Of a DNA stretch of 64,000 bases, positions 32,460-63,168 are shown one piece after another (the stretch's first letter is position 1; every line of letters begins with the position of its first letter). Source of the stretch: Candidatus Omnitrophota bacterium. GTDB lineage: Bacteria; Omnitrophota; Gorgyraeia; Gygaellales; Profunditerraquicolaceae. A model generated the notes under the pieces. It was not told the origin of the DNA and ran no database searches. It saw only the letters and a list, made by a program, of their open reading frames with translations. Made by a program: the position numbers and the translations under genes. The stretch is taken from assembly GCA_043814315.1 (NCBI GenBank), contig JBDRKE010000005.1, positions 28,220-92,219 of the forward strand. The letters run 5' to 3'.

Positions 32460-32542
32460 GGGCAAGTGGTGGAATGGCTTACACGATGGACTTAAAATCC
32501 ATTGGCCGCAAGGTCGTGAGGGTTCGACTCCCTCCTTGCCCA
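32460..32542 (+). tRNA. tRNA-Leu (anticodon TAA), type II with long variable arm
   Basis: Acceptor GGGCAAG/CTTGCCC, anticodon loop CTTAAAA, long variable arm, T-loop TTCGACT. Confidence 0.85.
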
Positions 32543-32619
32543 TGAAATTTTGCAAGGCAAAATTTCATCCCGAGCAGCGACAGGGAAACATATAGGCTGC
32601 GAGGGATTACCTTTTTTGC

Positions 32620-32697
32620 GGGCGCTTAGCTCAGTTGGTTTAGAGCGTTTCCTTGACATGGAAAAGGCCACGGGTTCGAATCCTGTAGCGCCCACCA
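32620..32697 (+). tRNA. tRNA-Val (anticodon GAC) with encoded CCA
   Basis: Acceptor GGGCGCT/AGCGCCC, D-arm GCTCAGTTGGTTTAGAGC, anticodon loop TTGACAT, T-loop TTCGAAT. Confidence 0.85.
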
Positions 32698-35210: not shown

Positions 35211-35214
35211 AAAA

Positions 35215-35345
35215 ACGACATGAGAAATCCCAATTTCCAAATAAATTCCAAATCCCAAATCTCAATGTTCGAAACTTGCATGTTTGGAATTTGGAAAATT
35301 GGAATTTGATGCTTGCCCCGTTAAAAATCTTCGATTTTTATACGG
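35215..35345. repeat. Family A repeat element downstream of thrS
   Basis: aaatcccaatttccaaataaattccaaatcccaaatctcaa...ttggaatttggaaaattggaatttga, plus hairpin ccccgttaaaaatc...gatttttatacgggg. Confidence 0.55.
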
Positions 35346-36259: not shown

Positions 36260-36607
36260 ATGGCAAAGATTAAGCATAGTGTAGCCACGCGTAAAAGAAA
36301 GAAAAGGACCCTGAAAAAAGCCAAAGGTTTTTGGGGGGATAGAAGTAAGCAGTACCAACAGGCGCGCCGTGTCCTGATGCACGCCAAGGCGTATGCGTAT
36401 CGCGATAGGCGCGTGAAAAAAAGAGAGATGCGCCGGCTTTGGATCGCACGCATCAATGCAGCCTGCCGTGCCGAAGGTTTGACTTACAGCGTTTTTATCA
36501 AGGGTCTTAAAAAAGCCAAAGTCAGCCTGGACAGAAAGGTGCTGGCGGACCTGGCGGTCAGAGACGCAAAGGCGTTTGGAAAGCTGGTAGAAATAGCCAA
36601 AGCTTAA
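36260..36607 (+). CDS. rplT: 50S ribosomal protein L20
   Basis: [26 protein letters not shown]...; 115 aa. The hairpin ccccgcagctgtgcacgggtgcgggg at 36170-36196 in the rpmI-rplT spacer may be the L20 regulatory site. Confidence 0.95.
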
Positions 36608-36735
36608 TTTCAAATGACAAAATTCAAAGCACAAAATAAATCCAAAATCCCAAACAAAAACTTTTTTGATTTGAATTTTGTGCTTTGAGCTTATTTTAAA
36701 TTTTGTGCTTTGTCATTTGAATTTTCAGAAAGAGC
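36608..36735. repeat. Family A repeat element (long imperfect hairpin)
   Basis: tcaaatgacaaaattcaaagcacaaaataaatccaaaatcccaaa...tttgatttgaattttgtgctttgagc...attttgtgctttgtcatttgaatttt. Confidence 0.7.
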
Positions 36736-36739
36736 TAAC

Positions 36740-38193: not shown

Positions 38194-39696
38194 ATGATCT
38201 TGAAGCCCCGGCTGGAAGACGTTAAAATTATCGGTTACTATTTAGGAAAGATTATCATGGGCATAGCCATCACTATGCTGATACCGATAGGGGTAGGATT
38301 GGGCTTTGGCGAATTAAACCCCGTCCTGGATTTCGTCATAACCCTTGAGATCGCCCTTTTATCGGGTTTCATTTTTACCAAATTGTGCTTTACGCAGAAG
38401 GACCTGAATTGGATGCAGGGCATGATTGTTGTGAGCCTTTCATGGCTGGCAGCCATGTTTTTAGGTGCGATACCGTTATATTTAAGCGGGCACTGGAATT
38501 CATACCTTGATGCCTGCTTTGACGCTATGTCGGGTTTTGCGACTACAGGTTTAACTTTAATCCAGGATCTCGACCATCTCTCCTACACGCACAATATCTG
38601 GCGCCACCTTATGATGTTTATCGGCGGCCAGGGGATCGTTATTGTTGCTCTTTCTCTTTTTATCAAAGGATATTCCGGGGCTTTTAGAATGTATGTCGGA
38701 GAAGCGCGCGACGAAAGAATCCTGCCGAATGTTATTTATACGGCCAGGTTCATCTGGCTGGTCAGTATCGTGTACCTAGTCTTAGGCACCCTGGCCTTAG
38801 GTATAACCGGCCTCTTGGGCGGCATGAAGCCTATCAATGCTTTTTTCCATGGCGTATGTATTTTTATGGCAGCTTTTGATACGGGAGGCTTTGCCCCTCA
38901 ATCCCAGAACATTCTTTTTTATCACAGTTTCCCCCTTGAGGTAGTTACAATGGTCATCATGATTTTAGGGGCCATCAATTTTAAATTGCACTACCATATA
39001 TGGACAGGCAACCGCAGAGAGATCATCAAAAACATAGAAATCCACACCTTTTTAGTCACCGTTATGTTGGCTTTTCTTGTGACCGGGATAGGTTTAGCCC
39101 AATCAGGCATTTACCCTAACGCCCTCATGTTCTTCCGCAAGGGTTTCTATCAACTCATTTCTGGCCACACCGGCACCGGATATCAGACTATTTACGCCAG
39201 CCAGTTTATGAATGACTGGAACCCCCTGGCCTTGGTGGGTGTTATGGGCGCCATGGCCCTGGGAGGCGCAGTATCTTCAACTACAGGAGCCATCAAGATG
39301 CTGCGTATCGGCGTGATCTTTAAGGCGCTTTTAGAAGATATCAAAAGAATCATTTTACCGGAGAGAGCGGTTGTGGTCCAAAAGTTCCACCACATTAAAG
39401 ACATGTTTTTAGAAGATAAACTCGCCAGGTCCGCCCTGTTGATAACGCTGGCATATCTGGCGCTTTATGGTTTTGGCGCTATCGTGGGCATGTTCTTTGG
39501 TTACCCCTTTCTGAATTCTTTATTTGAATCAACCTCAGCAGCAGCCAACGTAGGATTATCGTGCGGCCTGACCCAGGCAACCATGCCCCCTTTGTTAAAA
39601 ATCACTTACATATTTCAGATGTGGGCCGGCCGCCTGGAATTCATGTCGGTGTTTACCTTAATAGGCGTCTTTGTGGCGGTCTTTAAAGGGAAGTGA
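38194..39696 (+). CDS. trkH: Trk/Ktr-family K+ transporter membrane subunit
   Basis: 500 aa polytopic with the repeated GGxG-like selectivity segments of TrkH/KtrB. Confidence 0.85.
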   Translation: MILKPRLEDVKIIGYYLGKIIMGIAITMLIPIGVGLGFGELNPVLDFVITLEIALLSGFIFTKLCFTQKDLNWMQGMIVVSLSWLAAMFLGAIPLYLSGHWNSYLDACFDAMSGFATTGLTLIQDLDHLSYTHNIWRHLMMFIGGQGIVIVALSLFIKGYSGAFRMYVGEARDERILPNVIYTARFIWLVSIVYLVLGTLALGITGLLGGMKPINAFFHGVCIFMAAFDTGGFAPQSQNILFYHSFPLEVVTMVIMILGAINFKLHYHIWTGNRREIIKNIEIHTFLVTVMLAFLVTGIGLAQSGIYPNALMFFRKGFYQLISGHTGTGYQTIYASQFMNDWNPLALVGVMGAMALGGAVSSTTGAIKMLRIGVIFKALLEDIKRIILPERAVVVQKFHHIKDMFLEDKLARSALLITLAYLALYGFGAIVGMFFGYPFLNSLFESTSAAANVGLSCGLTQATMPPLLKITYIFQMWAGRLEFMSVFTLIGVFVAVFKGK

Positions 39697-40199
39697 TGTT
39701 TAAACATTGGGATTTGGAAATTGGGATTTATTTGGTATTATGGGTATTATTTGTAGTATTTGGATTTACCTTGAGCGGCTATGCTCAGCCTGTCTCAAGT
39801 GAAGAGCTTATCAAGAACGCTAAGGAGTACGACGGTAAAACCGTGGTTTACGAAGGGGAAGTCATAGGAGACATTATGAGGCGCGCAGATTACGCCTGGG
39901 CCAATGTTAAAGACGGTTCACGTGCCATCGGCATCTGGATTCATTCCTCCTTGCTTAAGGATGTGGCGTATAGCGGCAGCTATAAATCCAAGGGGGATGC
40001 CGTGGAGATTACGGGAATCTTCCGGCGGGCCTGTCCTGAACACGGCGGAGATTTAGATATTCACGCCGAAGCGCTGCGCGTCACAAGCGGCGGAAGAATG
40101 ATTACGGAAAGACTGAAAACGGATAAAAGAAATATGGCGGCTGTATTGCTAGGAGCCTTGTGTTTCGTATGGATATTGACTCTATTTATTCGCAAATAG
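39693..40199 (+). CDS. Hypothetical membrane-anchored protein with N- and C-terminal TM helices
   Basis: 168 aa; hydrophobic helices at both ends. The central domain has no recognised family. Confidence 0.4.
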   Translation: MMFKHWDLEIGIYLVLWVLFVVFGFTLSGYAQPVSSEELIKNAKEYDGKTVVYEGEVIGDIMRRADYAWANVKDGSRAIGIWIHSSLLKDVAYSGSYKSKGDAVEITGIFRRACPEHGGDLDIHAEALRVTSGGRMITERLKTDKRNMAAVLLGALCFVWILTLFIRK

Positions 40200-41290
40200 A
40201 AGCCGAGATTCAAAGGGTTAATACGCCTCTGGCCTGGGAGGAATTTCGCACCAAGCATCTGGGGAGAAAAGGCGTTATTGCACAGCTGACCAGTTCCATA
40301 TCCAGCCTGCCTCCGCAAGAACGCGCTGGTTTTGGTCAACAGGTCAATGCCTTAAAAACAAAAATCCTCTCTTTGCTTGAAGAGAAAGAAAGAGCCTTAG
40401 CGCAAGACAGCCAGCCGCCAGAGGTCGTTTCATGCGATATGGCGATGCCAGGCATGGCCCAGGAAATCGGGCATATCCATCCCGTTACGCAAGTCATGGA
40501 TGCCATCTGCACGATATTTGACCGCATGGGTTTTTCGGTGGTTGAAGGCCCTGAAATAGAGACGGAGTACAATAATTTTACGGGCTTGAATATCCCCCTG
40601 GAGCATCCTTCCCGCGACGCGTTTGATACCTTCTATTTAAAGTTAGCCGGTTCTCCTGTTAGCCAATTAGCCGGTTCAACCGGCAAACCGGCAAATGGTT
40701 CGACAGGCTCACCATCTCTCGAACCATCCCGAGCGAAGTCGAGGGACCGGCAAACCGGAAAACTATTGTTGCGCAGCCATACCTCTCCGGTCCAGATCCG
40801 GGTCATGAAATCGCGTAAGCCGCCTTTGGCTGTAGTGGTCCCCGGCCGGGTTTATCGGCCTGATGCCGTTGATGCCAGCCACTCTTTTATGTTCCATCAG
40901 ATCGAGGGATTTATGGTAGACACAGACATTAGGTTCTCGGATTTAAAAGGCGTATTAGAATTATTTGCCAAGGCGGTTTTCGGGAAAGATATAAAGATGC
41001 GTTTCAGGCCGCATTTTTTTCCTTTCACCGAGCCATCGGCAGAGGTTGACATCTCCTGTATCATCTGTCAGGGAAAAGGGTGTTCTGTATGCGGCAGGAA
41101 AGGGTGGCTTGAGATTTTGGGCTCAGGCATGATTCACCCCAACGTCTTCAAACAGGTGGGCTACGATCCCAAAAAGTATTCGGGTTTTGCCTTCGGCATG
41201 GGCGTTGAAAGAATCGCCATGCTTAAATACGGGATTAATGATATTCGTTTATTTTTCGAGAACGATTTAAGATTTTTGAAGCAGTTCTAG
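40169..41290 (+). CDS. pheS: Phenylalanyl-tRNA synthetase alpha subunit, with an in-frame repeat insertion
   Basis: Class II motifs present. About 40 aa (LKLAGSPVSQLAGSTGKPANGSTGSPSLEPSRAKSRDRQTGK) lie between DTFY and LLRSHTSPVQIR, where E. coli has none. Confidence 0.9.
   Translation: MDIDSIYSQIEAEIQRVNTPLAWEEFRTKHLGRKGVIAQLTSSISSLPPQERAGFGQQVNALKTKILSLLEEKERALAQDSQPPEVVSCDMAMPGMAQEIGHIHPVTQVMDAICTIFDRMGFSVVEGPEIETEYNNFTGLNIPLEHPSRDAFDTFYLKLAGSPVSQLAGSTGKPANGSTGSPSLEPSRAKSRDRQTGKLLLRSHTSPVQIRVMKSRKPPLAVVVPGRVYRPDAVDASHSFMFHQIEGFMVDTDIRFSDLKGVLELFAKAVFGKDIKMRFRPHFFPFTEPSAEVDISCIICQGKGCSVCGRKGWLEILGSGMIHPNVFKQVGYDPKKYSGFAFGMGVERIAMLKYGINDIRLFFENDLRFLKQF
40640..40765 (+). repeat. Family B repeat (GTTAGCCGGTT / AACCGGCAAACCGG units) inserted in-frame in pheS
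   Basis: gttagccggttctcctgttagccaattagccggttcaaccggcaaaccggcaaatgg...gaccggcaaaccggaaaac read directly. Confidence 0.7.
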
Positions 41291-41297: not shown

Positions 41298-43409
41298 ATG
41301 AAAGTTACCTTTAGTTGGCTTAGGGATTTTGTAGATATCAGGCTATCGCCGGAAGCGCTGGCTGAAAAGCTCACCATGGCAGGCCTCGAGGTGACTTCTT
41401 TAGAGAGGAAGGAAGGGGATGTCGTTTTTGAGATTGAGGTAACCTCGAACCGTCCGGATTGGTTAAGCGTAGTCGGTATCGCCAGGGAAGTAGCGGCGAT
41501 TACTGGAAAAAAGTTAGCCAGTATGCCAGTTATCCAGTTAACCAGTTCTAACCGGCTAACCGGCAAACCGGCTAACCGGCTAACAATAAATATTCAGGAC
41601 AAAAAGGATTGTCCTTTATATACCGCAAAGATTATAAAAGACGTCAAGGTTGGGCCTTCACCGGAGTGGTTAAGGAAACGGTTAGAAGGGGTGGGTTGCC
41701 GCAGCATCAACAATATCGTGGATATCACGAATTATTGTTTATTCGCGTGGGGAGAGCCGCTTCACGCCTTTGATTTAGATAAAGTTGTTGGCCAGTTGGC
41801 CAGTACGCCAGTTAGTCAGTTAAATGTGATTATAAGAAGAGCGAAAAAGGGAGAAGAAATAGTAACCATTGACGGAATCAAGAGAATATTGAACGAAGAA
41901 ATCCTTGTTATTGCTTCGGAGGATAAAGAAAAATCCGGCAAACCGGAAAACCAGCAAATTGGCAAACCAATAGCGATAGCCGGCATCATGGGTGGTAAAG
42001 ATACACAGGTAACAGAGGGGACAAAAAATATTCTCCTGGAAGCTGCCGTATTCAATCCGATTATCGTCAGGCGCGGCAGGCAGGCTCTCGGCTTGCAGAC
42101 GGATTCTTCTTATCGTTTTGAGCGGGGCGTGGATTTTGAAACGGCCAAGAGTGCTTCTTGGCAGGCCGTTGAATTGATTCGTGTCCTAGCTAAAGGAAGG
42201 TGTCTATCAGCCAAGAACGCAGGCGTGACTAAAACGAGGAACAAGACGGTTGATTTAAGCGTTGCCGCCGCCCATAAGATTTTGAATGTTTCTATTACAG
42301 CTTTGCAGATAAAGAGCATTTTGTATCACCTGGGTTTTAGCGTAAAGGTAATATCAAAAGATAGGTTTTGCGTAACCGTTCCCAGCTTCAGGCCTGATGT
42401 ACATTTGGAAATAGACCTGATAGAAGAGATAGCCAGAATTTTTGGTTTTGAGCAGATCCCCAAGACCTTGCCCCGGGTTATGCCTGAGCCCCTTATAGGT
42501 AGACAAAGAGACCTCGTTTCTGTAACAAAGAATTTCTTAACAGGTTTAGGATTGCATGAAGTAGTCACCTACAGTCTTATTGACAAAGATCTGCTGAGCC
42601 ACCTTGGCTTGTCCCGGCAGCAGGAAGCTATCGGGATTCTTAATCCCTTAAGCAAAGAACAGGAGATCTTAAGGCCGACTCTTTTGGCAAGCCTCGCGCA
42701 ATGCGTTGCCCATAACCTCAACCAGAAACAGGAGTATGTTGCGATTTTTGAAGTCGCACAAGTTTTTTTGAAACATCGGGAGGAGCCCAAAGAGGAATTG
42801 AGGTTAGGTTTAGCCCTGTGCGGCAGTAAATCATTTATGCTGAATGGGGGATTTGTCCAAGACCCGGCGGATTTTCTGCATTTAAAAGGTATCCTCGAGG
42901 TGCTTTTTGGGAGGATAGGCGTGGCGGAGTATCATTTTTCTGGTTCCGCCGCTCCTTCTACTATGGATATCCGCGTGGGCAAAGAAAAAATCGGCCTGAT
43001 GACGATGTTGACAAAAAGAGCCTTAGATAAGTTTGATATAAAGAATAAAGAAGTATTTCTGCTGGAACTTTCTTTAGAAAAGCTTTTGTCACTAGCGTTA
43101 CCGCAGAAGAAATTTACGGCTCTCCCTAAATATCCCGGCATAGCCAGGGATATAAGTTTTTACCTTAAAGATACGGTTTCCATCAAGGAATTATTGGAAA
43201 CGCTTAAAGCCCAAGGCCAACCGTGGCTTGGCAGCATCAAAATAGCGGATTGCTATAAAGGTAAACAGATTCCAGTCGGCTATAAAGGGTTAACGATCTC
43301 CTGTTTATACCGCAGCGATGAAAGGACCCTGACAGAAACAGAGATAACCCCTTTGCATGCCCTCCTGGTCAGCACCCTGACAGAACGCTTTGGCGGCAAG
43401 ATTCGCTGA
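41298..43409 (+). CDS. pheT: Phenylalanyl-tRNA synthetase beta subunit with three in-frame repeat insertions
   Basis: MKVTFSWLRDFVDIRLSPEALAEKLTMAGLEV matches the PheT N-terminus. B3/B4, B5 and FDX-ACB domains follow; 703 aa. Confidence 0.9.
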   Translation: MKVTFSWLRDFVDIRLSPEALAEKLTMAGLEVTSLERKEGDVVFEIEVTSNRPDWLSVVGIAREVAAITGKKLASMPVIQLTSSNRLTGKPANRLTINIQDKKDCPLYTAKIIKDVKVGPSPEWLRKRLEGVGCRSINNIVDITNYCLFAWGEPLHAFDLDKVVGQLASTPVSQLNVIIRRAKKGEEIVTIDGIKRILNEEILVIASEDKEKSGKPENQQIGKPIAIAGIMGGKDTQVTEGTKNILLEAAVFNPIIVRRGRQALGLQTDSSYRFERGVDFETAKSASWQAVELIRVLAKGRCLSAKNAGVTKTRNKTVDLSVAAAHKILNVSITALQIKSILYHLGFSVKVISKDRFCVTVPSFRPDVHLEIDLIEEIARIFGFEQIPKTLPRVMPEPLIGRQRDLVSVTKNFLTGLGLHEVVTYSLIDKDLLSHLGLSRQQEAIGILNPLSKEQEILRPTLLASLAQCVAHNLNQKQEYVAIFEVAQVFLKHREEPKEELRLGLALCGSKSFMLNGGFVQDPADFLHLKGILEVLFGRIGVAEYHFSGSAAPSTMDIRVGKEKIGLMTMLTKRALDKFDIKNKEVFLLELSLEKLLSLALPQKKFTALPKYPGIARDISFYLKDTVSIKELLETLKAQGQPWLGSIKIADCYKGKQIPVGYKGLTISCLYRSDERTLTETEITPLHALLVSTLTERFGGKIR
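41515..41590 (+). repeat. Family B repeat insertion 1 in pheT
   Basis: gccagttatccagttaaccagttctaaccggctaaccggcaaaccggctaaccggctaac encodes MPVIQLTSSNRLTGKPANRLT. Left and right halves are near reverse complements. Confidence 0.7.
41789..41823 (+). repeat. Family B repeat insertion 2 in pheT
   Basis: ttggccagttggccagtacgccagttagtcagtta encodes GQLASTPVSQL. Confidence 0.55.
41931..41975 (+). repeat. Family B repeat insertion 3 in pheT
   Basis: aaatccggcaaaccggaaaaccagcaaattggcaaacc encodes KSGKPENQQIGKP. Confidence 0.5.
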
Positions 43410-43615: not shown

Positions 43616-43900
43616 GTAATGCGAGTTCTTTTAAAATCCCTGCGGTGCGCGTTGGAATTCTGATAATTGTTGAACCAACAATAATCTAATGGGAGCTTGG
43701 AACTTCCTTGGCGCTTTGGCGCTAAGGAGAGAGCACCCACCTGAAACGAAATCGGTTCAGACTGTCACTCCAACGGCACGCTGCGGGGATTTTTTTATTG
43801 AGCCCCGCGGCATTCTTGCATTCGTAAGAATGCAAGAAGCGGGGCGAAATAATCCCGAGCCTGCGCAGTCAATTTCGAAGAAATTGACAAGCGTTTAGGC
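43616..43900 (+). ncRNA. Candidate structured leader or small RNA upstream of rarA (riboswitch-like alternative pairing)
   Basis: Begins downstream of the consensus promoter. Contains hairpins ccttggcgc-tttg-gcgctaagg and GCGGGG-U7-...-CCCCGC (43784-43808), a long hairpin with GNRA loop cattcttgcattc-GTAA-gaatgcaagaa (43811-43838), and a second GCGGGG (43839-43844) that could pair alternatively with CCCCGC. No convincing CDS: the 69-aa track ORF is low-complexity. Confidence 0.35.
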
Positions 43901-52756: not shown

Positions 52757-52838
52757 TGTTCGTTGCGCGTCGCGTACAGCGCATTGCGCGCAATACGCAA
52801 TACGCAATACGCGGTACGCATGACGTAAAAATAGCGCT

Positions 52839-53625: not shown

Positions 53626-53760
53626 GTCAAATGTCAAAATCCAAAATTCAAAATAAATCCCAAATCCAAAATCCAAAAAGAAGAATTCTCCATTTTGCAT
53701 GCTGCGTTTTGTGTTTATCTTGGATTTTGTGCTTTGTGCTTTGTCATCCAACTTTTGCCC
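53626..53760. repeat. Family A repeat element; its right arm overlaps the start of the next CDS
   Basis: tgtcaaatgtcaaaatccaaaattcaaaataaatcccaaatccaaaatccaaaa...ttggattttgtgctttgtgctttgtcat. Confidence 0.7.
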
Positions 53761-55583
53761 AGCAGGATGAAGAGTTGGAATTTAATTTGGATGTGACGGC
53801 AAGCACAACTCCCCTCCCGAAGATATTTCAGCCTAATATAGACTTAAGCGGCCGCGGATTCCATCGTGACCCCACCTGGCCGCAGACAGTAGCCGCTAAA
53901 GAGTCATTAGGCATTTGGCGCAGGGATTTGGGTTTTGGGGGCATGTATCGGTTGCAGTATAATCTTTGGGAGATCGGTCAGCTTTCCGAAGAGAAAGAGC
54001 TGCAGGAATCACTCCTGGCTCATTATGAAGAGATTATTAAGAATATCAGCGACGCCGGGGGCACTGTGATGCTGAATCTGTTTGGTACACCGGCCAACTT
54101 TGGCAGGGTTCTGGACAAGAAAAGCCCTCCGCGGGACTTAAAGGCCTTTAAGGCTCTGGTCAAAAGCATCATCCGAGATTTAAGTTGCAATAAAAGATAC
54201 AATATTTGGTATGAGGTTTGGACGGCGCCGGACTTGGACGACTTCTATATCGGCAGGGAACAGGAATACCTGAATTTATATCGGGTGGTTGCAGAAAGCG
54301 CCAGGGAATTACGACAGGAAACCAAGATCCATATCCCCGTGGGAGCCCCAAGCGTCAGCTGGTGGTTTCAGAATCTTAAAGGTAACACGATTGTCACCCC
54401 GGAAAGAAGCCTCATCTACACCCTCATTAAATTCTGCTACCGCTATCGCCTGCCTTTGGATTTTATCAGCTGGCATGGTTTCTCTACGGATCCCGGCGTA
54501 GAAAAAGAAAGCACCGTTTATAAAAAGACGGCGGTCACCCTTATAAGGGACTGGCTCTCTTATTTTGATTTTGACAAAAACACGCCCCTGATCGTTGACG
54601 AATGGAATTTTGACAGTGACGCCAATGTGTTGGCGGCACGGGGGGAAAAATCTTTTATCGCCGCCAGCTACATCCCCAGCCGCATAAAGAACATGCAGGC
54701 CGCCGGCATCGATTATCAAATCTACTATTGCCTTGAAGATTTTCGGCGCAACAAAGAAGGAGTGGTAAGAAACATTGGCATTTTTTCTTTTGATCCGGAA
54801 GAATCCGAATACAAAGGCGCGCGTAAGGCCACCTACAATGTGCTGAGAATGCTCTCGGCCCTTGGCCGTGATGAGTTTTTGCACAAAAATAACGATGATT
54901 TTGCAGGGGCGATAGCCACGAAAACCAGTGACGGCTATGCCCTGCTTTTTTATAATTATATTGATCCGCAGGTGGTCACCAACTACTTCACCAAAAACAT
55001 CGCCGGGCTTAGAGCCAAGGAAAGAAAAATTATTTTAACTCTCATAAGCTCCGAAAAGCTAGAAAAAATCATGCTGCATCAATTGGAGGTTTCTAAGTTA
55101 CGCGCGAGTAACAGGATCAAGAATTTCTTAAAGAAAGCGCAGGAATTAAATGATAAAGCCAAAAAATATGAATATAATGCGCGCCGCATCAAAATAAACA
55201 TTAAGAACCTAAAGCCTTCCAAGCCCGCCGACCGTAAAAACGGCAATGCGCAAAGGCCCAAAGATACACAAACGTATTATCTCTATGAAAAATACACGGT
55301 GGACGCTTCCTGCAGCTTCAACTGTGAATTTGTGCCCGTGGAAACAAAAGAGATTGAACCCGCAACCGAACCTTACCAGGAGACACTCGCCCTGAATCCT
55401 TATTCTGTGCACTTGATTCTGTTGAAGAAGAAGGTCAGAGAAATTAAGGAACCTGAAAAAGAACCTGAAAGCATACTTCCTTCACCTGATACCGCGCAAA
55501 TTCCGATAGAGAAAGAAGAAGCTCCCAAAGAGACCCCTAAGGAAGCTCCCAAAGAGACCCCTAGACAAGAAGACTCAAAGTGA
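53631..55583 (+). CDS. Secreted TIM-barrel glycoside-hydrolase-like protein with low-complexity C-terminal tail
   Basis: Signal peptide (ILHFACCVLCLSWILCFVLCHPTFA|QQ) is encoded partly by the repeat element. WYEVWTAPD and LIVDEWNF resemble GH clan-A acid/base and nucleophile strands, but NEP is replaced by TAP. The C-terminus has APKETPKEAPKETP tandem repeats (24-nt x2 at 55519-55566). Confidence 0.35.
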   Translation: MSKSKIQNKSQIQNPKRRILHFACCVLCLSWILCFVLCHPTFAQQDEELEFNLDVTASTTPLPKIFQPNIDLSGRGFHRDPTWPQTVAAKESLGIWRRDLGFGGMYRLQYNLWEIGQLSEEKELQESLLAHYEEIIKNISDAGGTVMLNLFGTPANFGRVLDKKSPPRDLKAFKALVKSIIRDLSCNKRYNIWYEVWTAPDLDDFYIGREQEYLNLYRVVAESARELRQETKIHIPVGAPSVSWWFQNLKGNTIVTPERSLIYTLIKFCYRYRLPLDFISWHGFSTDPGVEKESTVYKKTAVTLIRDWLSYFDFDKNTPLIVDEWNFDSDANVLAARGEKSFIAASYIPSRIKNMQAAGIDYQIYYCLEDFRRNKEGVVRNIGIFSFDPEESEYKGARKATYNVLRMLSALGRDEFLHKNNDDFAGAIATKTSDGYALLFYNYIDPQVVTNYFTKNIAGLRAKERKIILTLISSEKLEKIMLHQLEVSKLRASNRIKNFLKKAQELNDKAKKYEYNARRIKINIKNLKPSKPADRKNGNAQRPKDTQTYYLYEKYTVDASCSFNCEFVPVETKEIEPATEPYQETLALNPYSVHLILLKKKVREIKEPEKEPESILPSPDTAQIPIEKEEAPKETPKEAPKETPRQEDSK

Positions 55584-56884
55584 TGTTAAAAGATACGGCT
55601 GATAGGCACATTTACACCGTTTCGGAAATCACTCACAATATAAAAGCCATACTGCAGAATGCCTTTGGCGATAACGTCTGGGTGGAAGGGGAGATTTCTA
55701 ATTTCAATCATCATTCCTCAGGACATTTCTACTTTTCTTTAAAGGATCCCTCAAGCGTGGTTGCTGCCGTCATGTTTGCTTGGGCCAATAAGGGCGTTAA
55801 ATTTAAGATGGAAGACGGATTAAAGGTCATCTGTTTTGGCAGAATTGATTGCTACATACCGCGCAGTCAATATCAAATCATCGTAGAGAAGATCGAACCA
55901 AAGGGTATCGGGAGCCTCCAGTTGGCCCTGGAACAACTGAAAGTCAAACTGGAGAAAGAAGGCCTTTTTAGGCCGGAACGAAAAAAACCCATACCTTATT
56001 TACCGTCTCGCATTGGAGTGGTGACTTCTTTGTCAGGGGCGGCCATTCGGGATATGCTAAAAGTATTGGACAGGCGTTTCCGGGATGTGCATATTATTAT
56101 TAGTCCGGCCCAGGTGCAGGGGGAAGCGGCTAAAGAAGAGATTGCCCTGGCCATCAAAGAGCTCAATGCCTTTAACGAAAGCTCGCCCAGCGATGAGAGA
56201 ATAGAGGTTATGATTGTCGGCCGCGGAGGAGGCAGCATCGAAGACCTTTGGGCCTTCAATGAAGAAATCGTGGCTAAAGCCATTTATAACTCTAAAATAC
56301 CGGTGATTTCTGCTGTGGGCCATGAGCGGGATTGGACGATTGCGGATCTGGTGGCGGATTTGCGCGCGCCAACGCCGTCTGTGGCCGCAGAACTGGTTAT
56401 CCCTAAGAAAGAAGATTTGAAAAAGCAGGTCAAAGATGTATCCGAAGACCTAAAGGCGGCCTTTCAAGCGACGTTATCGCATTTGCAGGACACCGTAGAA
56501 GATTGTGCCTATCGCCTCAATTTAAGCATGCAAAACGTATTAAAATTAAGCACGTCTGAACTTGAGAATGCCAGGAAAAAGCTTGATCTCTTGAGTCCGC
56601 TGGCAGCTATCCAGCAGGCCAGGACCAGGATAGCCGATTTAACCAAGCAGTTCCATGTGTTCCTGCAGCACCTTTTGGAGTTAAAGCAGGCAGATTTTAA
56701 CAAGGCGGCAGAAAAGCTCTCAAACCTTAGCCCTCTTAATATTTTAGCCAGAGGATACAGCATTACGTTCAAGATGCCGCAAGAGGCGGTTGTTAAAGAC
56801 GCTTCACTCATGAAGGCAGGCGACATGATAAAAACCAAAGTTCATCGGGGTGAGATTTTAAGCACCATTACGGAGGTCGAATAA
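55580..56884 (+). CDS. xseA: Exodeoxyribonuclease VII large subunit
   Basis: N-terminal OB fold and GRGGGSIEDLWAFNEE motif; 434 aa. Confidence 0.9.
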   Translation: MMLKDTADRHIYTVSEITHNIKAILQNAFGDNVWVEGEISNFNHHSSGHFYFSLKDPSSVVAAVMFAWANKGVKFKMEDGLKVICFGRIDCYIPRSQYQIIVEKIEPKGIGSLQLALEQLKVKLEKEGLFRPERKKPIPYLPSRIGVVTSLSGAAIRDMLKVLDRRFRDVHIIISPAQVQGEAAKEEIALAIKELNAFNESSPSDERIEVMIVGRGGGSIEDLWAFNEEIVAKAIYNSKIPVISAVGHERDWTIADLVADLRAPTPSVAAELVIPKKEDLKKQVKDVSEDLKAAFQATLSHLQDTVEDCAYRLNLSMQNVLKLSTSELENARKKLDLLSPLAAIQQARTRIADLTKQFHVFLQHLLELKQADFNKAAEKLSNLSPLNILARGYSITFKMPQEAVVKDASLMKAGDMIKTKVHRGEILSTITEVE

Positions 56885-56885
56885 A

Positions 56886-57119
56886 ATGGCAGAGATAAAG
56901 TTTGAAGAGGCATTAAAAAAACTTGAGAAAATCGTAGAGGATCTAGAAAAAGGGGATTTGTCTCTGGATGAGGCCTTAAAAAAATACCAGGAGGGCATTG
57001 AATTGTCCCGGCTGTGTAATCAGCGATTGGAGAGCGCCAAGAAAAAAATAGATATCCTGGTAAAGAATAAAAAAGGGGATTTTGAATTAAAGCCCCTGGA
57101 TCAGGATAAAGAGAAATAA
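56886..57119 (+). CDS. xseB: Exodeoxyribonuclease VII small subunit
   Basis: 77 aa, helical, FEEALKKLEKIVEDLEKGDLSLDEAL; follows xseA. Confidence 0.9.
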   Translation: MAEIKFEEALKKLEKIVEDLEKGDLSLDEALKKYQEGIELSRLCNQRLESAKKKIDILVKNKKGDFELKPLDQDKEK

Positions 57120-59017
57120 TGTTATTAGAGAAAATCCATTCTCCGCAGGATTTAAAGAAACTTTCTCCTGATAAGCTGCCGAGGCTTGCGCAGGAAATAA
57201 GGCAGAGGATTATTGAGGTTGTTGCATCTTGCGGCGGGCACCTCGCTTCGAGCCTGGGTGCTGTCGAGCTCATTTTAGCCTTACACTATTGTCTGGATGC
57301 CAGGCGTGACAAAATCATCTTTGATGTTGGGCATCAGGCCTATGCCCACAAGATACTGACCGGCAGAAACAAGGATTTTCATACGCTGCGTCAATATCAG
57401 GGCCTCAGCGGTTTTCCTTCCAAAGAGGAATCCGTTTGCGATATATTTACGACAGGCCACAGTTCCAGCGCCGTATCGCTGGCACTAGGTTTAGCCTGCG
57501 CAAGGGATTTCTTACCCCAAGAGCCATCTTTTAAAGTGGTAGCCGTTATCGGTGACGGTTCATTAAGCGGGGGGCTGTGTTTTGAGGGGCTGAATAATGC
57601 CGGCCACCTCAAAAAAGATATTTTAGTTATTTTAAATACCAATGAATTAAGCATTGCGCCGAATACGGGCGCCATAAGCACTTACCTTAATAAGATTATA
57701 TCGTTGCCTATATACAATCGCTTCAAAGGCTCTTTAGAAAGTTTTGTAAAATCGCGCATGCCCAAGGGGAGCCGTATCATCAAAATAGCCAATAAGTTCG
57801 AAGAGGGGCTTAAAGGGTTATTCATTCCCGGCATGCTTTTTGAAGAGTTGGGATTTCGGTATTTTGGCCCTTTCGACGGACACGATGTAAGCCTTCTGAT
57901 TAAGACATTGAAAAACATAAACAACCTAAGGGGCCCGCTCTTGCTGCATGTGGTTACCAAAAAAGGGAAAGGTTATGTTCCTGCAGAGCTCGATCCCGTC
58001 CGTTTTCACGGCACAGGGCCTTTTGATATCCTGTCAGGACAAAGGCAAGGCACAGCGTTTAAAACCTATACGGAGGTTTTCAGCGAAAAGCTATTAGATT
58101 TAGCCGCTCGCGATAAAAGAATCGTCGCTATCACAGCTGCCATGCCGGAAGGCACAGGTTTGGATAAATTTCGCGATCGTTTCCCGCAGAGGTTTTTTGA
58201 CGTAGGCATTGCAGAAACTCATGCCGTCTGCTTTTCCGCAGGCCTTGCTAAAGCAGGACTCAAACCGGTCGTGGCCATATATTCCACTTTTTTGCAAAGG
58301 GCTTATGATCAGATTATTGAAGATATCGCGTTGCAGAATTTACCCGTCGTCTTTATGCTTGACCGCTCAGGCATCGTGGGAGAGGATGGAGTAACCCACC
58401 AGGGCATTTTTGACATCGGATACTTAAGAAATATTCCTCATTTAGTGGTGATGGCACCCAAGGATGGGGGGGAGTTAGAAGCGATGCTTGAATTCGCTAT
58501 TGGCTTAGATAGGCCTTGCGTTATCAGGTACCCCAGGGATAAAATCCCAAATCCAATGGTTCGACTCCGTTCTCCATTGGCACCGAGCGAATCCGAGGTG
58601 CCCAAATCCCAAATTCCAAATGAGAAAATAGAACTAGGAAAGGCCGAGGTATTAATGGAAGGAAAAGACTTTATGCTTTTAACGCTGGGAAGCATGGTTT
58701 GCCCGGGTTTTGAGGCCATGGAATTGTTGCGCAAGGAGGGCCTATCCGGAACTTTGATAAATGCCCGCTTTGTAAAACCCTTGGACACTGAGCTATTTAA
58801 ACAGATAGCTTCAAAGGCCAAATTTATTTTTTCGGTTGAAGAGGGAATCGTAGAAGGAGGTTTTGGCAGCGCGGTAGCCGAGGCTCTGGATGGCGTTGTG
58901 ACCAAGATAGGGTTGCCTTGCGCCTTTATCCCGCACGGAAAAAGAGCTTTAATGTTGGATAAATACAGATTAACGGCCCAAGGGATTGCTGATAAAATCA
59001 AATCCGTATTGCGTTAA
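57119..59017 (+). CDS. dxs: 1-deoxy-D-xylulose-5-phosphate synthase with an in-frame repeat insertion near the C-terminal domain
   Basis: TPP-binding GDG motif and transketolase-like domains; 632 aa. Between RYPRD and EKIELGKAEV lies an extra KIPNPMVRLRSPLAPSESEVPKSQIPN. Confidence 0.9.
   Translation: MLLEKIHSPQDLKKLSPDKLPRLAQEIRQRIIEVVASCGGHLASSLGAVELILALHYCLDARRDKIIFDVGHQAYAHKILTGRNKDFHTLRQYQGLSGFPSKEESVCDIFTTGHSSSAVSLALGLACARDFLPQEPSFKVVAVIGDGSLSGGLCFEGLNNAGHLKKDILVILNTNELSIAPNTGAISTYLNKIISLPIYNRFKGSLESFVKSRMPKGSRIIKIANKFEEGLKGLFIPGMLFEELGFRYFGPFDGHDVSLLIKTLKNINNLRGPLLLHVVTKKGKGYVPAELDPVRFHGTGPFDILSGQRQGTAFKTYTEVFSEKLLDLAARDKRIVAITAAMPEGTGLDKFRDRFPQRFFDVGIAETHAVCFSAGLAKAGLKPVVAIYSTFLQRAYDQIIEDIALQNLPVVFMLDRSGIVGEDGVTHQGIFDIGYLRNIPHLVVMAPKDGGELEAMLEFAIGLDRPCVIRYPRDKIPNPMVRLRSPLAPSESEVPKSQIPNEKIELGKAEVLMEGKDFMLLTLGSMVCPGFEAMELLRKEGLSGTLINARFVKPLDTELFKQIASKAKFIFSVEEGIVEGGFGSAVAEALDGVVTKIGLPCAFIPHGKRALMLDKYRLTAQGIADKIKSVLR
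58540..58635 (+). repeat. Family A-related repeat inserted in-frame in dxs
   Basis: aaaatcccaaatcc + palindrome ccaatggttcgactccgttctccattgg + cccaaatcccaaattccaaat. Confidence 0.6.
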
Positions 59018-59029
59018 GCTTTTTATAGA

Positions 59030-59233
59030 ATGGCCAGGATTAAGATCGATCAAGACAAATGCAAAGGATGCCTCTTGTGTATAAAGTTTTGTCCCAAAGG
59101 CTCCCTGAGCCTAGACAATAAATTAAACCGATGGGGGGTAAAGCCGGTTAAATCTCAGAAGAGCAAGGCTTGCATAGGCTGTAGTATCTGTGCGATTGTT
59201 TGTCCGGATTGCTGTATCGAAGTGTATAAATAA
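59030..59233 (+). CDS. porD: 2x[4Fe-4S] ferredoxin, delta subunit of a 2-oxoacid:ferredoxin oxidoreductase
   Basis: 67 aa with CKGCLLCIKFCP and CIGCSICAIVCP motifs, immediately upstream of the alpha subunit. Confidence 0.8.
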   Translation: MARIKIDQDKCKGCLLCIKFCPKGSLSLDNKLNRWGVKPVKSQKSKACIGCSICAIVCPDCCIEVYK

Positions 59234-59325
59234 AATTCAAATGACAAAATCCAAAATTCAAAACAAAACCTTTTTAGTTTTGGATTTTGTGCTTTGTGCT
59301 TTGTCATTTGAATTTATGCCTTTTG
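59234..59325. repeat. Family A repeat element
   Basis: aaattcaaatgacaaaatccaaaattcaaaacaaaacc...ttttggattttgtgctttgtgctttgtcatttgaattt, near-perfect long hairpin. Confidence 0.75.
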
Positions 59326-59329
59326 GATT

Positions 59330-60412
59330 ATGTCTCAAAAAAAAGTCTTGATGACAGGTAATGAGGCCATGGCCGAAGGCGCCATACAGGCAGGATGTTC
59401 GTTTTATGCGGGTTACCCGATTACTCCGCAGAATGAGATACCTGCTTATATGGCACGCCGCATGCCTGAAGCAGGAGGCGTATTTATTCAGGCGGAATCA
59501 GAACTGGCAGCCGTCAATATGGTGTTTGGAGCAGCAGCCGCAGGGGCTCGCGCTTTGACCAGTTCCTCCAGCCCCGGGATCAGCCTTAAGCAGGAGGGAA
59601 TTTCTTATTTGGCTGGGGCCCAATTGCCGGCTGTGATTATTAATGTGATGCGCGGCGGCCCGGGATTGGGCAACATCTGGCCAGCGCAATCAGATTATTT
59701 TCAGGCCACGCGTAGCGGCGGCCACGGAGATTACCATTCTATAGTGCTTGCGCCTTCCTCTGTTCAGGAGTCTTATGATCTGGCGGGCCGTGCGTTTGAC
59801 CTTGCCGAGAGGTATCGTACCCCGGTTATCATTCTGGGGGACGGAACACTCGGGCAGATGATGGAACCCCTCGTTATCAAATCCAAAATTCCTTCCTGCC
59901 CCGAGGGCAGGAAGGATCCAAAATCCAAAATAAAGAAACCCTGGGCGCTGACGGGCTGTCAAAGAAGAAAGCCGAATGTCGTAAAATCTTTTTATCTGAA
60001 GGAAGGAGATTTAGAAAAGTTTAACCTCACTTTACAAAAGAAATACAATTCCATTAAACAAAAAGTTCAGTGTTATGAGGGGTCATTTTTAGATAAGGCC
60101 CGGGTGGTTGTTGTGGCTTATGGAACGATGAGCCGGATTGCCAAAAGCGCGGTCAGTCAACTGCGCAAAAACGGCAAAAGAATCGGCTTGATACGGCCCG
60201 TCACCCTTTGGCCGTTTCCTCAACAGGCCTTCCAGAGATTCAGCCGACCGGAGAGAAAAGTTAAGTTTCTGGTTGTGGAGATGTCTTACGGCCAGATGTT
60301 AGAAGATGTGAAATTGGCGCTGGATGGCCGATGCCCCGTTGGCTTTCTGGGCCGTTCCGGCGGAGGAGTACCGACGGAGGAAGAGATTATATCCAAGATA
60401 AGTGAACTATAG
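59330..60412 (+). CDS. porA: 2-oxoacid:ferredoxin oxidoreductase alpha subunit (POR/KOR/VOR family) with an in-frame repeat insertion
   Basis: MSQKKVLMTGNEAMAEGAIQAGCSFYAGYPITPQNEI matches the N-terminus of the family. An extra IKSKIPSCPEGRKDPKSKIKKP segment sits near residue 185. Confidence 0.85.
   Translation: MSQKKVLMTGNEAMAEGAIQAGCSFYAGYPITPQNEIPAYMARRMPEAGGVFIQAESELAAVNMVFGAAAAGARALTSSSSPGISLKQEGISYLAGAQLPAVIINVMRGGPGLGNIWPAQSDYFQATRSGGHGDYHSIVLAPSSVQESYDLAGRAFDLAERYRTPVIILGDGTLGQMMEPLVIKSKIPSCPEGRKDPKSKIKKPWALTGCQRRKPNVVKSFYLKEGDLEKFNLTLQKKYNSIKQKVQCYEGSFLDKARVVVVAYGTMSRIAKSAVSQLRKNGKRIGLIRPVTLWPFPQQAFQRFSRPERKVKFLVVEMSYGQMLEDVKLALDGRCPVGFLGRSGGGVPTEEEIISKISEL
59878..59936 (+). repeat. 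Family A-related repeat inserted in-frame in porA
   Basis: aaatccaaaattcc + palindrome ttcctgccccgagggcaggaagg + atccaaaatccaaaat. Confidence 0.6.
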
Positions 60413-61806: not shown

Positions 61807-63168
61807 ATGGTTAGAGTTCGCTTCGCCCCTTCTCCGACGGGGAATCTCCATATAGGGGGCGCACGTACCGCATTGTTTAATTGGCTTTACGCCAGAGCCA
61901 GGCAGGGAAAATTTATCTTAAGGATAGAGGACACGGATCAGGCCCGTTCACAAAAAGAGTATCTGGACGAAATATTGTTTAGCCTCAAGTGGCTGGGGCT
62001 TGTCTGGGATGAGCTTTATCACCAGAGCCAGAGGCTTGAGATTTATAGAGACTATGCCGATAAATTGCTAAAACAAGGTAAGGCATATTCTGTTAGCCCG
62101 TTAGCCAATTCGCCAGTTCGCCAGTTCGAACCGGAAAACCGGAAAACCGGAAAACCGGCAAACCAAGAAGCCATTATCTTCAAGGTGACCCCTCAAAAGA
62201 TAAAGATCCATGATTTGGTCCGCGGCCCGATTGAATTCGATGCCGAGGATCTCAAGAATCAGGTCTTGATAAAATCCGACGGTACGCCTACCTACAATTT
62301 TGCCTGCGTCGTGGATGACGCTTTGATGGATATAACCCACGTGATCAGAGGCGATGATCACATCTCCAATACGCCCAAGCAGGTTCTTCTTTACCATGCC
62401 TTGGGATTGAGGATTCCTGAGTTTGCCCACCTGCCTTTGATTTTGGGCAAGGAGGGGGGCCGGCTTTCTAAAAGAACGGGCGCCACCGCCATCAGCGAAT
62501 ATCGCAGCCTGGGATATTTGCCGCAGGCCCTCATTAACTACCTGTTGCTTTTGAGCTGGTCACCGGGTGAAAACCGGGAGGTCATCGATTTAACAGAAGC
62601 GATTTCCTTATTTGATATCAAAGACGTGAATAAGACGGCAGCCACCTTTGACAGGGATAAGCTTAACTGGATGAATAATCAGTATCTAAAGTCCGCAGAC
62701 ACGCAAGGCTTAACCGATAGGCTTATCCCTATGCTGATCGAAAAGAAATTACTCCCGGAAGATAATTTTGATAGAAATGCCATCGTTTCTTTAGTGAAAT
62801 TATTTCAAGCCAGGCTCACCACGCTTAATGATTTTGTTAATTGGGCTGACTTCTTCTTCGTCAAAGATATTCAAATAGATCCCGCGGCCCAAGAGAAGCA
62901 TTTAAGCAAAGATCTTTCGGAGCCCTTCCTTCTTTTTATTCAAAGGCTGGAGGCCCTGGAGACATTTGATATCGCCTCCATCGAGAAAAGCTTTCGCGAT
63001 TTAGTCAAGGAACTGGGCACAGAATCCAAATCGCTTATCCATCCTATCAGGGTGGCTTTAACAGGCAAGACCGTTGGGCCCGGGTTGTTTGAGGTGATAT
63101 ATTATTTGGGTAAGGAGCGCACCAAAGAGAGACTCATGAAATGGGCGAAAGAAAGGAGTCAGAAATGA
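61807..63168 (+). CDS. gltX: Glutamyl-tRNA synthetase with an in-frame repeat insertion
   Basis: Class I HIGH (PSPTGNLHIGGART) and KMSKS-like (RLSKR) motifs; 453 aa. An extra PLANSPVRQFEPENRKTGKPANQEA segment follows KAYSVS. Confidence 0.9.
   Translation: MVRVRFAPSPTGNLHIGGARTALFNWLYARARQGKFILRIEDTDQARSQKEYLDEILFSLKWLGLVWDELYHQSQRLEIYRDYADKLLKQGKAYSVSPLANSPVRQFEPENRKTGKPANQEAIIFKVTPQKIKIHDLVRGPIEFDAEDLKNQVLIKSDGTPTYNFACVVDDALMDITHVIRGDDHISNTPKQVLLYHALGLRIPEFAHLPLILGKEGGRLSKRTGATAISEYRSLGYLPQALINYLLLLSWSPGENREVIDLTEAISLFDIKDVNKTAATFDRDKLNWMNNQYLKSADTQGLTDRLIPMLIEKKLLPEDNFDRNAIVSLVKLFQARLTTLNDFVNWADFFFVKDIQIDPAAQEKHLSKDLSEPFLLFIQRLEALETFDIASIEKSFRDLVKELGTESKSLIHPIRVALTGKTVGPGLFEVIYYLGKERTKERLMKWAKERSQK
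62098..62168 (+). repeat. Family B repeat inserted in-frame in gltX
   Basis: gttagccaattcgccagttcgccagttcgaaccggaaaaccggaaaaccggaaaaccggcaaacc; left CCAGTTCG units and right AACCGGAA units are near reverse complements. Confidence 0.7.

Follow-up and report, generated by a model that had tools for sequence, protein, structure and literature searches.

The window analysed here is a stretch of 64,000 nucleotides (nt) from a Candidatus Omnitrophota bacterium (GenBank assembly GCA_043814315.1, contig JBDRKE010000005.1, positions 28,220 to 92,219 of the forward strand), with a G+C content of 44.8%. The region studied within it contains rny, ymdB, a gene for a GH39-like glycosidase, xseA, xseB, dxs, porD, porA, porB, porG, and gltX. 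Our subject is a family of short repeats built of tandem 7-nt units, which lies between genes of the window and is also found inside coding sequence, at the start of the GH39-like gene and in the inter-domain connectors of dxs and porA. The gene order from rny to gltX is kept in three relatives (L001/L002, L003/L004, and L005), in which Dxs has 83-85% identity to the window's protein. These syntenic relatives and about 300 orthologues form the basis of comparison, and all of them are metagenome-assembled genomes (MAGs) or metagenome contigs. The features at the three coding segments are as follows (window coordinates; z compares folding with that of shuffled sequences).

53631-55583 (+): gene for a GH39-like, predicted secreted glycosidase, 650 aa from ATG 53631 (Pfam PF01229, E 3e-16; orthologues)
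53626-53745 (+): array-hairpin copy across the ymdB/GH39 junction, with left A/C-rich arm 53626-53680, spacer 53681-53711, and right T/G-rich arm 53712-53745 (dG -22.8 kcal/mol, z -2.7)
53631-53759 (+): predicted signal peptide MSKSKIQNKSQIQNPKRRILHFACCVLCLSWILCFVLCHPTFA, then QQ; n- and h-regions from the repeat, cleavage site placed by the conserved FAQ motif
58541-58555 (+): left 7-nt unit array of the dxs linker, AAAATCCCAAATCCA
58556-58601 (+): nested 46-nt mini-element of the dxs linker, ATGGTTCGAC...GAGCGAATCCGAGGTGC, read as MVRLRSPLAPSESEV
58602-58621 (+): right 7-nt unit array of the dxs linker, CCAAATCCCAAATTCCAAAT (also found by Tandem Repeats Finder, TRF)
59877-59889 (+): left unit array of the porA connector
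59890-59916 (+): nested GC palindrome of the porA connector, 12-bp stem (dG -23.5 kcal/mol, z -5.6), read as PSCPEGRK
59917-59935 (+): right unit array of the porA connector (TRF)

A family of array hairpins

A repeat search combined with TRF identified at least eight copies of this hairpin repeat family in the 64 kb. One arm consists of A/C-rich 7-nt units (AAATCCA, AAATTCA, AAAGCAC) and the other of a complementary T/G-rich run of the TGGATTT/GTGCTTT type. For the word AAATCCAAAAT, allowing up to one mismatch, 24 occurrences were counted where 5.1 were expected, a number that 0 of 100 shuffles attained. TRF placed period-7 arrays at 10595, 17924, 35225, 52789, 53635, 58601, 59245, 59916, and 60502, so that tandem heptanucleotides are dispersed in this genome in the manner of short tandemly repeated repetitive (STRR) sequences. 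Owing to the imperfect units, a period scan at 81% identity detected only one period-7 array and three period-8 arrays; better results came from a relaxed autocorrelation and from TRF at score 30. The copies outside the three segments that match 53626-53745, apart from the coding copy at 39697-39767 described below, are these.

10556-10651 (+): copy at the junction of two minus-strand genes (repeat search)
17899-18007 (+): intergenic copy with a nested GC palindrome, CTGCCTTGCCGGCAGGCAG (repeat search)
35200-35310 (+): intergenic copy in the thrS/infC spacer (repeat search, TRF)
36599-36736 (+): intergenic copy (repeat search; z -4.6)
59231-59322 (+): intergenic array-hairpin between porD and porA (dG -29.1 kcal/mol, z -6.3); site empty in L001, L003, and L005
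60413-60540 (+): array-hairpin in the porA/porB spacer; in L003 and L005 these genes overlap, and a different hairpin is present in L001

The original prediction held that the same repeat family occurs inside coding sequence, and this is borne out: all three segments are family DNA read in frame and are similar to the intergenic copies. The GH39 copy matches those listed above and 39697-39767 at 69-89% identity or complementarity, with 71-87% identity to the intergenic stretches 36606-36719 and 59247-59301; at 76-80%, the arrays of dxs and porA belong to one repeat group (D4), and the porA palindrome with its flank is 73% identical to 17899-17943. The dxs and porA segments contain A/C-rich units and nested stems only. 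Folded against shuffles, the intergenic copies reach z -6.3 and -4.6, and the GH39 copy -2.7 (-2.0 in another frame of reference).

Many of these sites are polymorphic. Orthologues lacking the repeat, with which a comparison had been advised, gave filled and empty sites at porD/porA, porA/porB, and gltX, and the porA palindrome is absent in L005. Where the window has a hairpin between porD and porA, the two genes abut in L001, L003, and L005 (TATAAATAAT/ATG). The copy at this site has inverted-repeat termini, AAATTCAAATGACAAA and TTTGTCATTTGAATTT (59233-59317), as do miniature inverted-repeat transposable elements (MITEs); no clear target-site duplication was seen when filled and empty sites were compared. 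A further heptamer array, (CGCAATA) x4.6, occupies 52789-52820 in the rny-ymdB spacer.

A predicted signal peptide coded by the repeat

The repeat at the start of the GH39-like gene is translated through both of its arms. ATG 53631 sits inside the left arm, in the terminal repeat, and the left arm (53626-53680) encodes MSKSKIQNKSQIQNPK. The spacer (53681-53711) and right arm (53712-53745) encode the hydrophobic core ILHFACCVLCLSWILCFVLC, and the c-region HPTFA/QQ (slash at the predicted cleavage site) is coded just outside the repeat. It had been proposed that the right arm supplies both the N-terminus and the core of the signal peptide; the right arm is indeed translated there, but the N-terminus is supplied by the left. 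The predicted peptide has the properties of a Sec-type cleavable signal peptide, with n-region charges at K3, K5, K9, K16, R17, and R18, an h-region of about 20 residues, which is longer than usual, and a cleavage motif T-F-A/Q with small residues at -3 and -1.

Gene callers differ on the start. The NCBI model (P0121) has 615 aa from GTG 53736, which lies inside the right arm, and so has no signal peptide; the JGI call for L003 is likewise late. A start at 53736 would give MLCHPTFAQQ, in which the FAQ/Q motif follows no h-region. ATG 53631, the start first assumed, is nonetheless the likely one because the corresponding ATG survives in four syntenic genomes, with frame 0 open through the repeat despite in-frame 21-nt indels. 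In L001, frame 0 is open across two in-frame 21-nt palindromes (LPHRQAGLPRRQA), a 42-nt insertion in total. The other forward frames across the repeat contain stops in 3/4 of the syntenic genomes; the window is open in forward frame 1 as well.

In nearly all of 120 GH39 orthologues (55-82% identity), the N-terminus is a signal peptide that ends in FAQ(Q/E/D). A translated hairpin, its units differing by lineage, is plainly visible in many of them, for example in MTKFKIQNKSKFQ...LCFGICH, VISYKLWVIS...THHSSLITHNY, and SEVRSQRSEVR...LFSVLCLLFSV, while distant relatives have short, plain, non-repeat signal peptides such as MNKCKPIMLRRALLFLVLFIFFWSNLCFAQ. Hairpins with z < -3 were found in 5/25 signal-peptide-coding regions, all five of the repeat type, versus 0/25 matched mature-protein regions. 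The suggestion that the repeat offers a route to de novo acquisition of a signal peptide does not fit this distribution, and no cytoplasmic protein was observed gaining one. Since nearly all orthologues have the FAQ-ending peptide and the distant ones are plain, we conclude that the GH39 signal peptide is ancestral and that the repeat-coded version is derived from it by overwriting or extension.

A second secreted protein of the window is built in a related way.

39697-39767 (+): T/G-rich half copy coding the signal peptide of a second predicted secreted protein (ORF 39696-40199), MFKHWDLEIGIYLVLWVLFVVFGFTLSGYA then QP; 72-88% complementary to the A/C-rich arms

Here the half copy codes the h-region of the open reading frame (ORF). 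The protein family is conserved (1134 matches at E <= 1e-3) and mostly has plain signal peptides; a subset is of the repeat type and matches the signal peptides of GH39 orthologues, as in RKVISHKLWVTSFLFLLFFTYHLSPITYHYC versus RKVISYKLWVISFLFLIFLTHHSTLITHNYC. Between the GH39 family and this unrelated one there were 18 signal-peptide matches at E < 1e-6, versus 0 in 20 shuffled controls. With the 45-aa GH39 signal peptide by itself as query, a protein search returned no match, since 5-residue words in common were lacking.

GTDB genomes scanned for the element terminus CAAATGWCAAAATCCAAAAT gave at least 109 matches in many phyla, a raw count uncorrected for the A-rich composition of this 20-nt pattern. 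With that reservation, the matches (L006-L114) include more than 15 Nostoc contigs as well as members of the candidate phyla radiation (CPR)/Patescibacteria, Bacteroidota, Clostridia, Gammaproteobacteria, and Margulisiibacteriota. The terminus pattern holds 110 ATGs, and 14 of them begin ORFs of 100 aa or more. Hairpin-coded signal peptides among these belong to a GH2-like protein, a solute-binding protein (SBP) lipoprotein, a periplasmic binding protein, and a metallophosphoesterase. With the shared repeat-type signal peptides of the ORF-39696 family, they answer the question of whether other secreted proteins start inside the same repeat. Other ORFs of this set carry the repeat as N-terminal extensions of cytoplasmic proteins, with OpcA in Nostoc as one example (L027, L032, L101), and one internal in-frame copy lies in, or immediately upstream of, a tRNA-ligase anticodon-binding domain (Pfam Anticodon_1) of a gammaproteobacterial MAG (L017).

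Array-coded connectors in dxs and porA

Both enzyme segments are read through in frame, as the original prediction had it; they lie in inter-domain connectors, and alignments to solved structures gap or break there. The dxs insert translates as KIPNP-MVRLRSPLAPSESEV-PKSQIPN. It lies between Pfam Transket_pyr (end 477) and Transketolase_C (start 507), and alignment with E. coli DXS (2o1s) leaves a 17-residue gap at the insert, between domains II and III. The porA arrays and palindrome translate as IKSKIPSCPEGRKDPKSKIK, and the alignment of PorA to 1yd7 ends at residue 185 and restarts at 236, that is, at the insert. The description of both segments as direct repeats flanking short GC palindromes applies to porA, with its 12-bp GC palindrome, but not to dxs, where a 46-nt module with two short stems and no single GC palindrome stands between the arrays.

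The dxs linker holds an array in every genome examined, with a unit that differs by lineage: CAAATCC in the window, CAAATTC in L001, CAACCCC in L003, and CGGATTC in L005, with 8-nt CCCGTTAT and GTTTGCCC and 7-nt AGTCCCC in more distant relatives. The linker peptide shifts with 7-residue periodicity alongside the DNA unit, as in RIPDSGFQISD from CGGATTC, and (AAATTCC)x3, translated across its three frames, yields the widespread "motif" KFQIPNS. Conservation of these segments across distant orthologues had been named as a finding that would count against a repeat origin. The flanks KIPNxKxQIPN are indeed common to Dxs proteins down to about 74% identity, but the units change in concert from CAAATCC to CAAATTC, CAACCCC, and CGGATTC, which is the behaviour of an array and not conservation of a protein motif.

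The 46-nt module recurs at the same dxs site at 40/46 identity in L196, and in L195 as two identical copies in two frames. The dxs genes of L195 and L196 are only 69-75% identical to that of the window, and the module is absent in 21 closer orthologues. Other dxs orthologues have a 21-nt GC palindrome between the arrays, read as LPVRQAG or PACPAGR depending on frame. A tRNA-like origin of the ATGGTTCGAC module, considered for its T-loop resemblance, was rejected, as the stems fit no layout of T-arm and acceptor.

At the porA site, a different 21-nt palindrome stands in L001, none in L005, and arrays of other kinds in L003. Across about 70 metagenomic relatives, the connector has a basal loop of 13-15 residues; many lineages have in its place, and in frame, about four lineage-specific heptamer units (among them GTACAGA, AAAAATC, CAAGAAC, GACGGAA, and GGTGTCA), a full hairpin, or an array with a palindrome nested in it. 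Read on the minus strand, the palindrome of porA (59890-59916) and its T-rich units together score as an intrinsic terminator (12-bp stem, ATTTTGGATT tail).

The term exaptation, applied earlier to both enzymes, goes beyond this evidence, which is of tolerated connector inserts with fast turnover; tolerance is all that is demonstrated, and the inserts would be close to neutral for the enzymes.

A second family and the spread of arrays

A second family of the same build, with 8-nt units TTAGCCGG and AACCGGCA, lies in frame in aminoacyl-tRNA synthetase genes.

40634-40775 (+): in-frame 8-nt-unit copy in pheS; a 52-nt module is nested in it (40695-40746)
41508-41592 (+): 8-nt-unit hairpin in frame in pheT (z -5.3)
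62083-62166 (+): 8-nt-unit hairpin in frame in gltX, giving 18 extra residues; absent in L001, L003, and L005

The 52-nt module of pheS (ATGGTTCGACAGGCTCACCATCTCTCGAACCATCCCGAGCGAAGTCGAGGGA) matches a copy in the L197 dxs linker, inverted there, at 50/51 positions, while the dxs genes of the window and L197 are only 70.7% identical, a contrast that would point to recent spread or strong constraint. The translations of this module (..GSTGSPSLEPSRAKSRD.. and ..MVSLSNH..) appear to resemble peptides of hypothetical proteins in many uncultivated phyla. In pheT, complementary half-arrays at 41784-41822 and 41935-41970 flank a 112-nt coding segment, and a long-range stem could form between them.

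Nested modules are also repeated within single genomes. In L001, a 21-nt palindrome, CTGCCNNNNNNGCAGGCAGGC, is identical in dxs and porA; five copies occur in 22 kb, each flanked by units, and it is absent from orthologues. This palindrome, the 50/51 match between pheS and the L197 linker, and the two-frame copies of the 46-nt module in L195 together suggest that the nested modules behave as mobile elements. A census counted 83 stringent arrays in 757 kb versus 0 in a block-shuffled control, with 62/83 fully within ORFs of at least 150 aa, a distribution among genes that is biased since the loci were picked around porA. Inside genes (porA and dxs, L115-L197) the arrays typically have about 4 to 5.5 units, and connector length is often unchanged. 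Telomere-like or G-quadruplex units were ruled out, the units being diverse and mostly not G-rich.

Proposed origin and alternative explanations

It is likely, at a rough probability of 0.68, that the three segments belong to a lineage-wide population of tiny array repeats that originate at the DNA level and persist in weakly constrained sequence. Under this model, the population would consist of tandem arrays of 7-8-nt units, typically about 4-6 of them, often with A/C-rich and complementary T/G-rich arms and with 21-52-nt palindromic mini-elements nested inside. Arrays may be made and homogenised by slippage, hairpin template switching, and/or ectopic copying, while the nested modules would spread as mini mobile elements that prefer arrays. 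Arrays and nested modules are seen to sit in sequence under weak constraint, to preserve the frame, to turn over fast, and to recur at unrelated loci; they would persist in operon spacers, inter-domain connectors, surface loops, and signal peptides, with selection removing frame breaks, stop codons, and hydrophobic T/G-arm peptides from soluble loops. Soluble loops would then tolerate only the A/C-rich strand, with its K/N/Q/S/P/I codons; we propose that this is why the A/C-rich strand is always sense in dxs and porA. At the 5' end of the gene for an exported protein, a whole hairpin could supply the ATG within its terminal repeat (CAAATGWCAAA), with the A/C arm coding for a Lys-rich n-region and the T/G arm for an h-region rich in Phe, Leu, Cys, Val, and Trp. 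Because nothing more is required of a signal peptide than a basic n-region followed by a hydrophobic h-region, such a hairpin may overwrite an existing signal peptide with export kept.

Several points weigh against this account. The mode of spread is unproven, and a transposase, a REP-associated tyrosine transposase (RAYT), or another candidate enzyme was not looked for beyond the 64-kb window. Array-coded linkers are often as long as plain ones, for which in-situ overwriting is a better fit than simple insertion, and the first step is hard to explain, as one added 7-nt unit shifts the frame. The signal-peptide copy of the window itself forms a weak hairpin (z -2.0 to -2.7), and folding of the inserts in dxs and gltX is no better than that of shuffles. 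Export of the GH39-like protein and use of ATG 53631 are probable on comparative grounds, and NCBI has the downstream GTG. The whole data set is metagenomic. Finally, the recurrence of hairpins of different sequence at the same porA and dxs sites could mean selection for structure.

This last possibility, that selection maintains the hairpins as nucleic-acid structures of drifting sequence (for translational pausing at domain boundaries, for stability or processing of mRNA, or for antisense termination), we consider unlikely. Hairpins of unrelated sequence do recur at the porA connector (L122, L130, L119, L131, L139, L177), the inserts are located exactly at domain junctions, the porA palindrome with its T-rich flank has a terminator-like minus strand, and the intergenic copies fold strongly (z -4.6 to -6.3). 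However, many relatives have a one-armed array or none at the same site, the sites are polymorphic among close relatives, the folding of the dxs and gltX inserts is unremarkable, as noted above, and the window repeats matched no Rfam family at gathering thresholds, where the only matches were tRNAs and the 6S RNA. It is improbable that the repeat at 53626-53745 is untranslated, with a start at GTG 53736 or at the in-frame TTG 53775 and the hairpin left as intergenic sequence or 5'-UTR (untranslated region). The 615-aa NCBI model and the late JGI start in L003 are in keeping with such a start, and unit arrays are intrinsically stop-poor, so that an open frame is weak evidence; forward frame 1 of the window is open too. 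A start at 53736, on the other hand, would put no h-region before a motif that about 120 orthologues conserve; four genomes retain the ATG and frame 0, in L001 across its 42-nt in-frame insertion, with other frames stopped in 3/4; and unrelated exported proteins use the same element ATG.

The signal-peptide arrays might also form a contingency (phase-variation) locus, in which gain or loss of one 7-nt unit shifts the frame and switches the glycosidase on or off. The unit length is no multiple of three, the array lies directly 3' of the ATG of a predicted secreted protein, and gene callers differ on the start codon. We regard this as very improbable: the same arrays occur in the essential single-copy genes dxs, porA, pheS, pheT, and gltX, where an off state would be lethal, the frame is intact in 4/4 syntenic genomes and in 25 loci examined (consensus assemblies), and the units of the window copy are imperfect, which lowers slippage rates. 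Hardly credible is the view that the K/I/P/N/S/Q-rich stretches are ordinary conserved low-complexity linkers whose likeness to the intergenic repeats is compositional. KIPNxKxQIPN is common to Dxs orthologues down to about 74% identity, as such a view would have it, but the peptide is an exact three-frame translation of a 7-nt array that changes with 7-residue periodicity, the same units fill intergenic hairpins, the excess of the AAATCCAAAAT word is significant, and shuffled controls contain no arrays. The unit changes in the dxs and porA connectors have largely refuted it already.

Starting from the population of array repeats that we favour, a more far-reaching proposal can be made, though we hold it to be doubtful. 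An active, hitherto undescribed DNA-level process in Omnitrophota and, to judge by the terminus scan, possibly in several other phyla including CPR and Nostocaceae, may write hairpins of about 4-6 units of 7-8 nt, together with nested mini-elements, into any stretch of 30-130 nt under weak constraint. Among its products would be a signal-peptide cassette, portable and equipped with its own ATG, Lys-rich arm, and hydrophobic arm, that continually replaces the signal peptides of exported proteins.

Comparison with known repeats

In-frame palindromic repeats occur in Rickettsia and Bordetella (PMC3184786). Like the Rickettsia palindromic elements (RPEs; Ogata et al. 2000, cited through PMC3184786), the repeats described here are small palindromes that occur both between genes and in frame in conserved genes, in tolerated surface segments, and are present or absent between orthologues. 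RPEs are single 105-146-nt elements of defined sequence, whereas here the arrays have 7-8-nt units, are lineage-specific, and contain nested 21-52-nt modules; nor are RPEs reported to code for signal peptides. The window repeats resemble RPEs in their in-frame presence and their absence from orthologues, and differ in consensus homology, in the 105-146 nt length, and in host. They are an analogue of RPEs and not a member.

Together with RPEs and the Neisseria opa repeats, cyanobacterial repeats are the nearest known cases. Mazel in 1990 and Elhai in 2008 reportedly described STRR heptamer arrays with nested small dispersed repeats (SDRs). CCCCAGT, the STRR1 unit, is the same heptamer as AGTCCCC, found four times over in the dxs linker of L123, and TTGGTCA, the STRR2 unit, is the same heptamer that gives LVIGHW in the GH39 signal peptides of P0133 and P0198. 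The systems share tandem heptamer arrays and 21-27-nt hairpin modules that behave as mobile and occasionally lie in genes. The 21-nt CTGCCNNNNNNGCAGGCAGGC of L001, dispersed and present or absent at orthologous sites, has the properties of an SDR; other modules here are longer (46-52 nt), and the module sequences (CTGCC..GGCAGGC; ATGGTTCGAC..GAGCGAAGTCGAGG) appear to differ from those of the SDRs. The SDRs (SDR1-8) have particular insertion contexts, for example SDR5 within HIP1. The present repeats also differ in belonging to Omnitrophota, in having arrays paired into hairpins, and in pervading essential enzymes and signal peptides. According to PMC5861425, citing Elhai 2008, SDR-like repeats are absent outside Nostocaceae, heptamer arrays with nested 21-27-nt mobile modules being found within that family.

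Translation of repeats within signal sequences has precedents as well. Stern et al. in 1986 are said to have described CTCTT repeats in the leader-peptide coding region of Neisseria opa genes, non-triplet and translated in the hydrophobic signal sequence. The likeness lies in non-triplet tandem repeats translated within a signal sequence; the opa repeats are perfect, slippage-prone, and phase-varying, whereas here the units are imperfect, occur also in essential genes, and showed no on/off variants. In Y. pestis, the enterobacterial repeat RU-2/YPAL contributes to the signal peptide predicted for YPO1552 (Delihas 2007, PMC2759123). That is a single in-silico case in a small hypothetical protein, in contrast to the many orthologues, at least two conserved families, and signal peptides common to unrelated exported proteins found here.

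Repetitive extragenic palindromic (REP) sequences are extragenic almost by definition. With REPs, bacterial interspersed mosaic elements (BIMEs), and the REP-doublet hairpins called REPINs, the present family shares short hairpin repeats in operon spacers and many copies per genome. In REPs the sequence is conserved and tagged with the tetranucleotide GTAG/CGTC, and RAYT transposases are associated with them (PMC3733652, PMC3116915). The tag is not evident in the window copies, and transposases were not systematically searched for beyond the 64 kb. Rapidly evolving tandem repeats that arise independently at many sites, as here, are also known from Borgs, giant archaeal extrachromosomal elements whose repeats create disordered protein regions and are reported to be virtually absent from the host (PMC9879509), and from the intergenic heptamers GGGNATC (PMC4692102) and TAACTGA (PMC4679880), which are under-represented in coding sequence. 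The preference of GGGNATC repeats for about four units, attributed to G-quadruplexes (PMC4692102), resembles the 4 to 5.5 units seen here, but our units are mostly not G-rich; and where GGGNATC and TAACTGA avoid genes, the 7-8-nt units here are read through in all three frames. Our literature searches found no paper linking Omnitrophota with such repeats.

Other features of the window

Elsewhere in the window, a 6S RNA gene lies at 43634-43793 (Rfam, 67 bits) and four tRNA genes at 14014-14088 and 32255-32694. A promoter and terminator scan found no enrichment in the region. Positions 1-8800 contain no complete listed ORF longer than 110 aa, and a very long ORF may extend past the left end; direct repeats lie at 741-770, 1725-1787, and 7170-7199. 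In the relatives, NifU has 510 aa in L001, with a faint LAGLIDADG match, versus 152 aa in L003, and EF-G has 1081 aa in L003 versus 696 aa in L001; both differences suggest inteins.

Implications

If the proposed origin is correct, non-triplet micro-repeats colonise essential enzymes and signal peptides at large scale in an uncultivated phylum, which would extend the idea of selfish DNA inside genes from Rickettsia and the idea of mini-elements from Nostocaceae. There are practical consequences as well. Gene callers cut repeat-coded N-termini short, as in the NCBI GH39-like model without a signal peptide and in the JGI call for L003, profile hidden Markov models split at the inserts, and repeat-derived peptides can make unrelated proteins look spuriously similar. 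The arrays also flag protein sites that accept arbitrary sequence, which is useful in engineering. For the biology of these bacteria, the repeats would provide a DNA-level reason for the very fast turnover of signal peptides and for near-identical signal peptides on unrelated proteins. Should the more tentative idea of a portable cassette also prove true, such a cassette could in principle give export to a new ORF or make export phase-variable.

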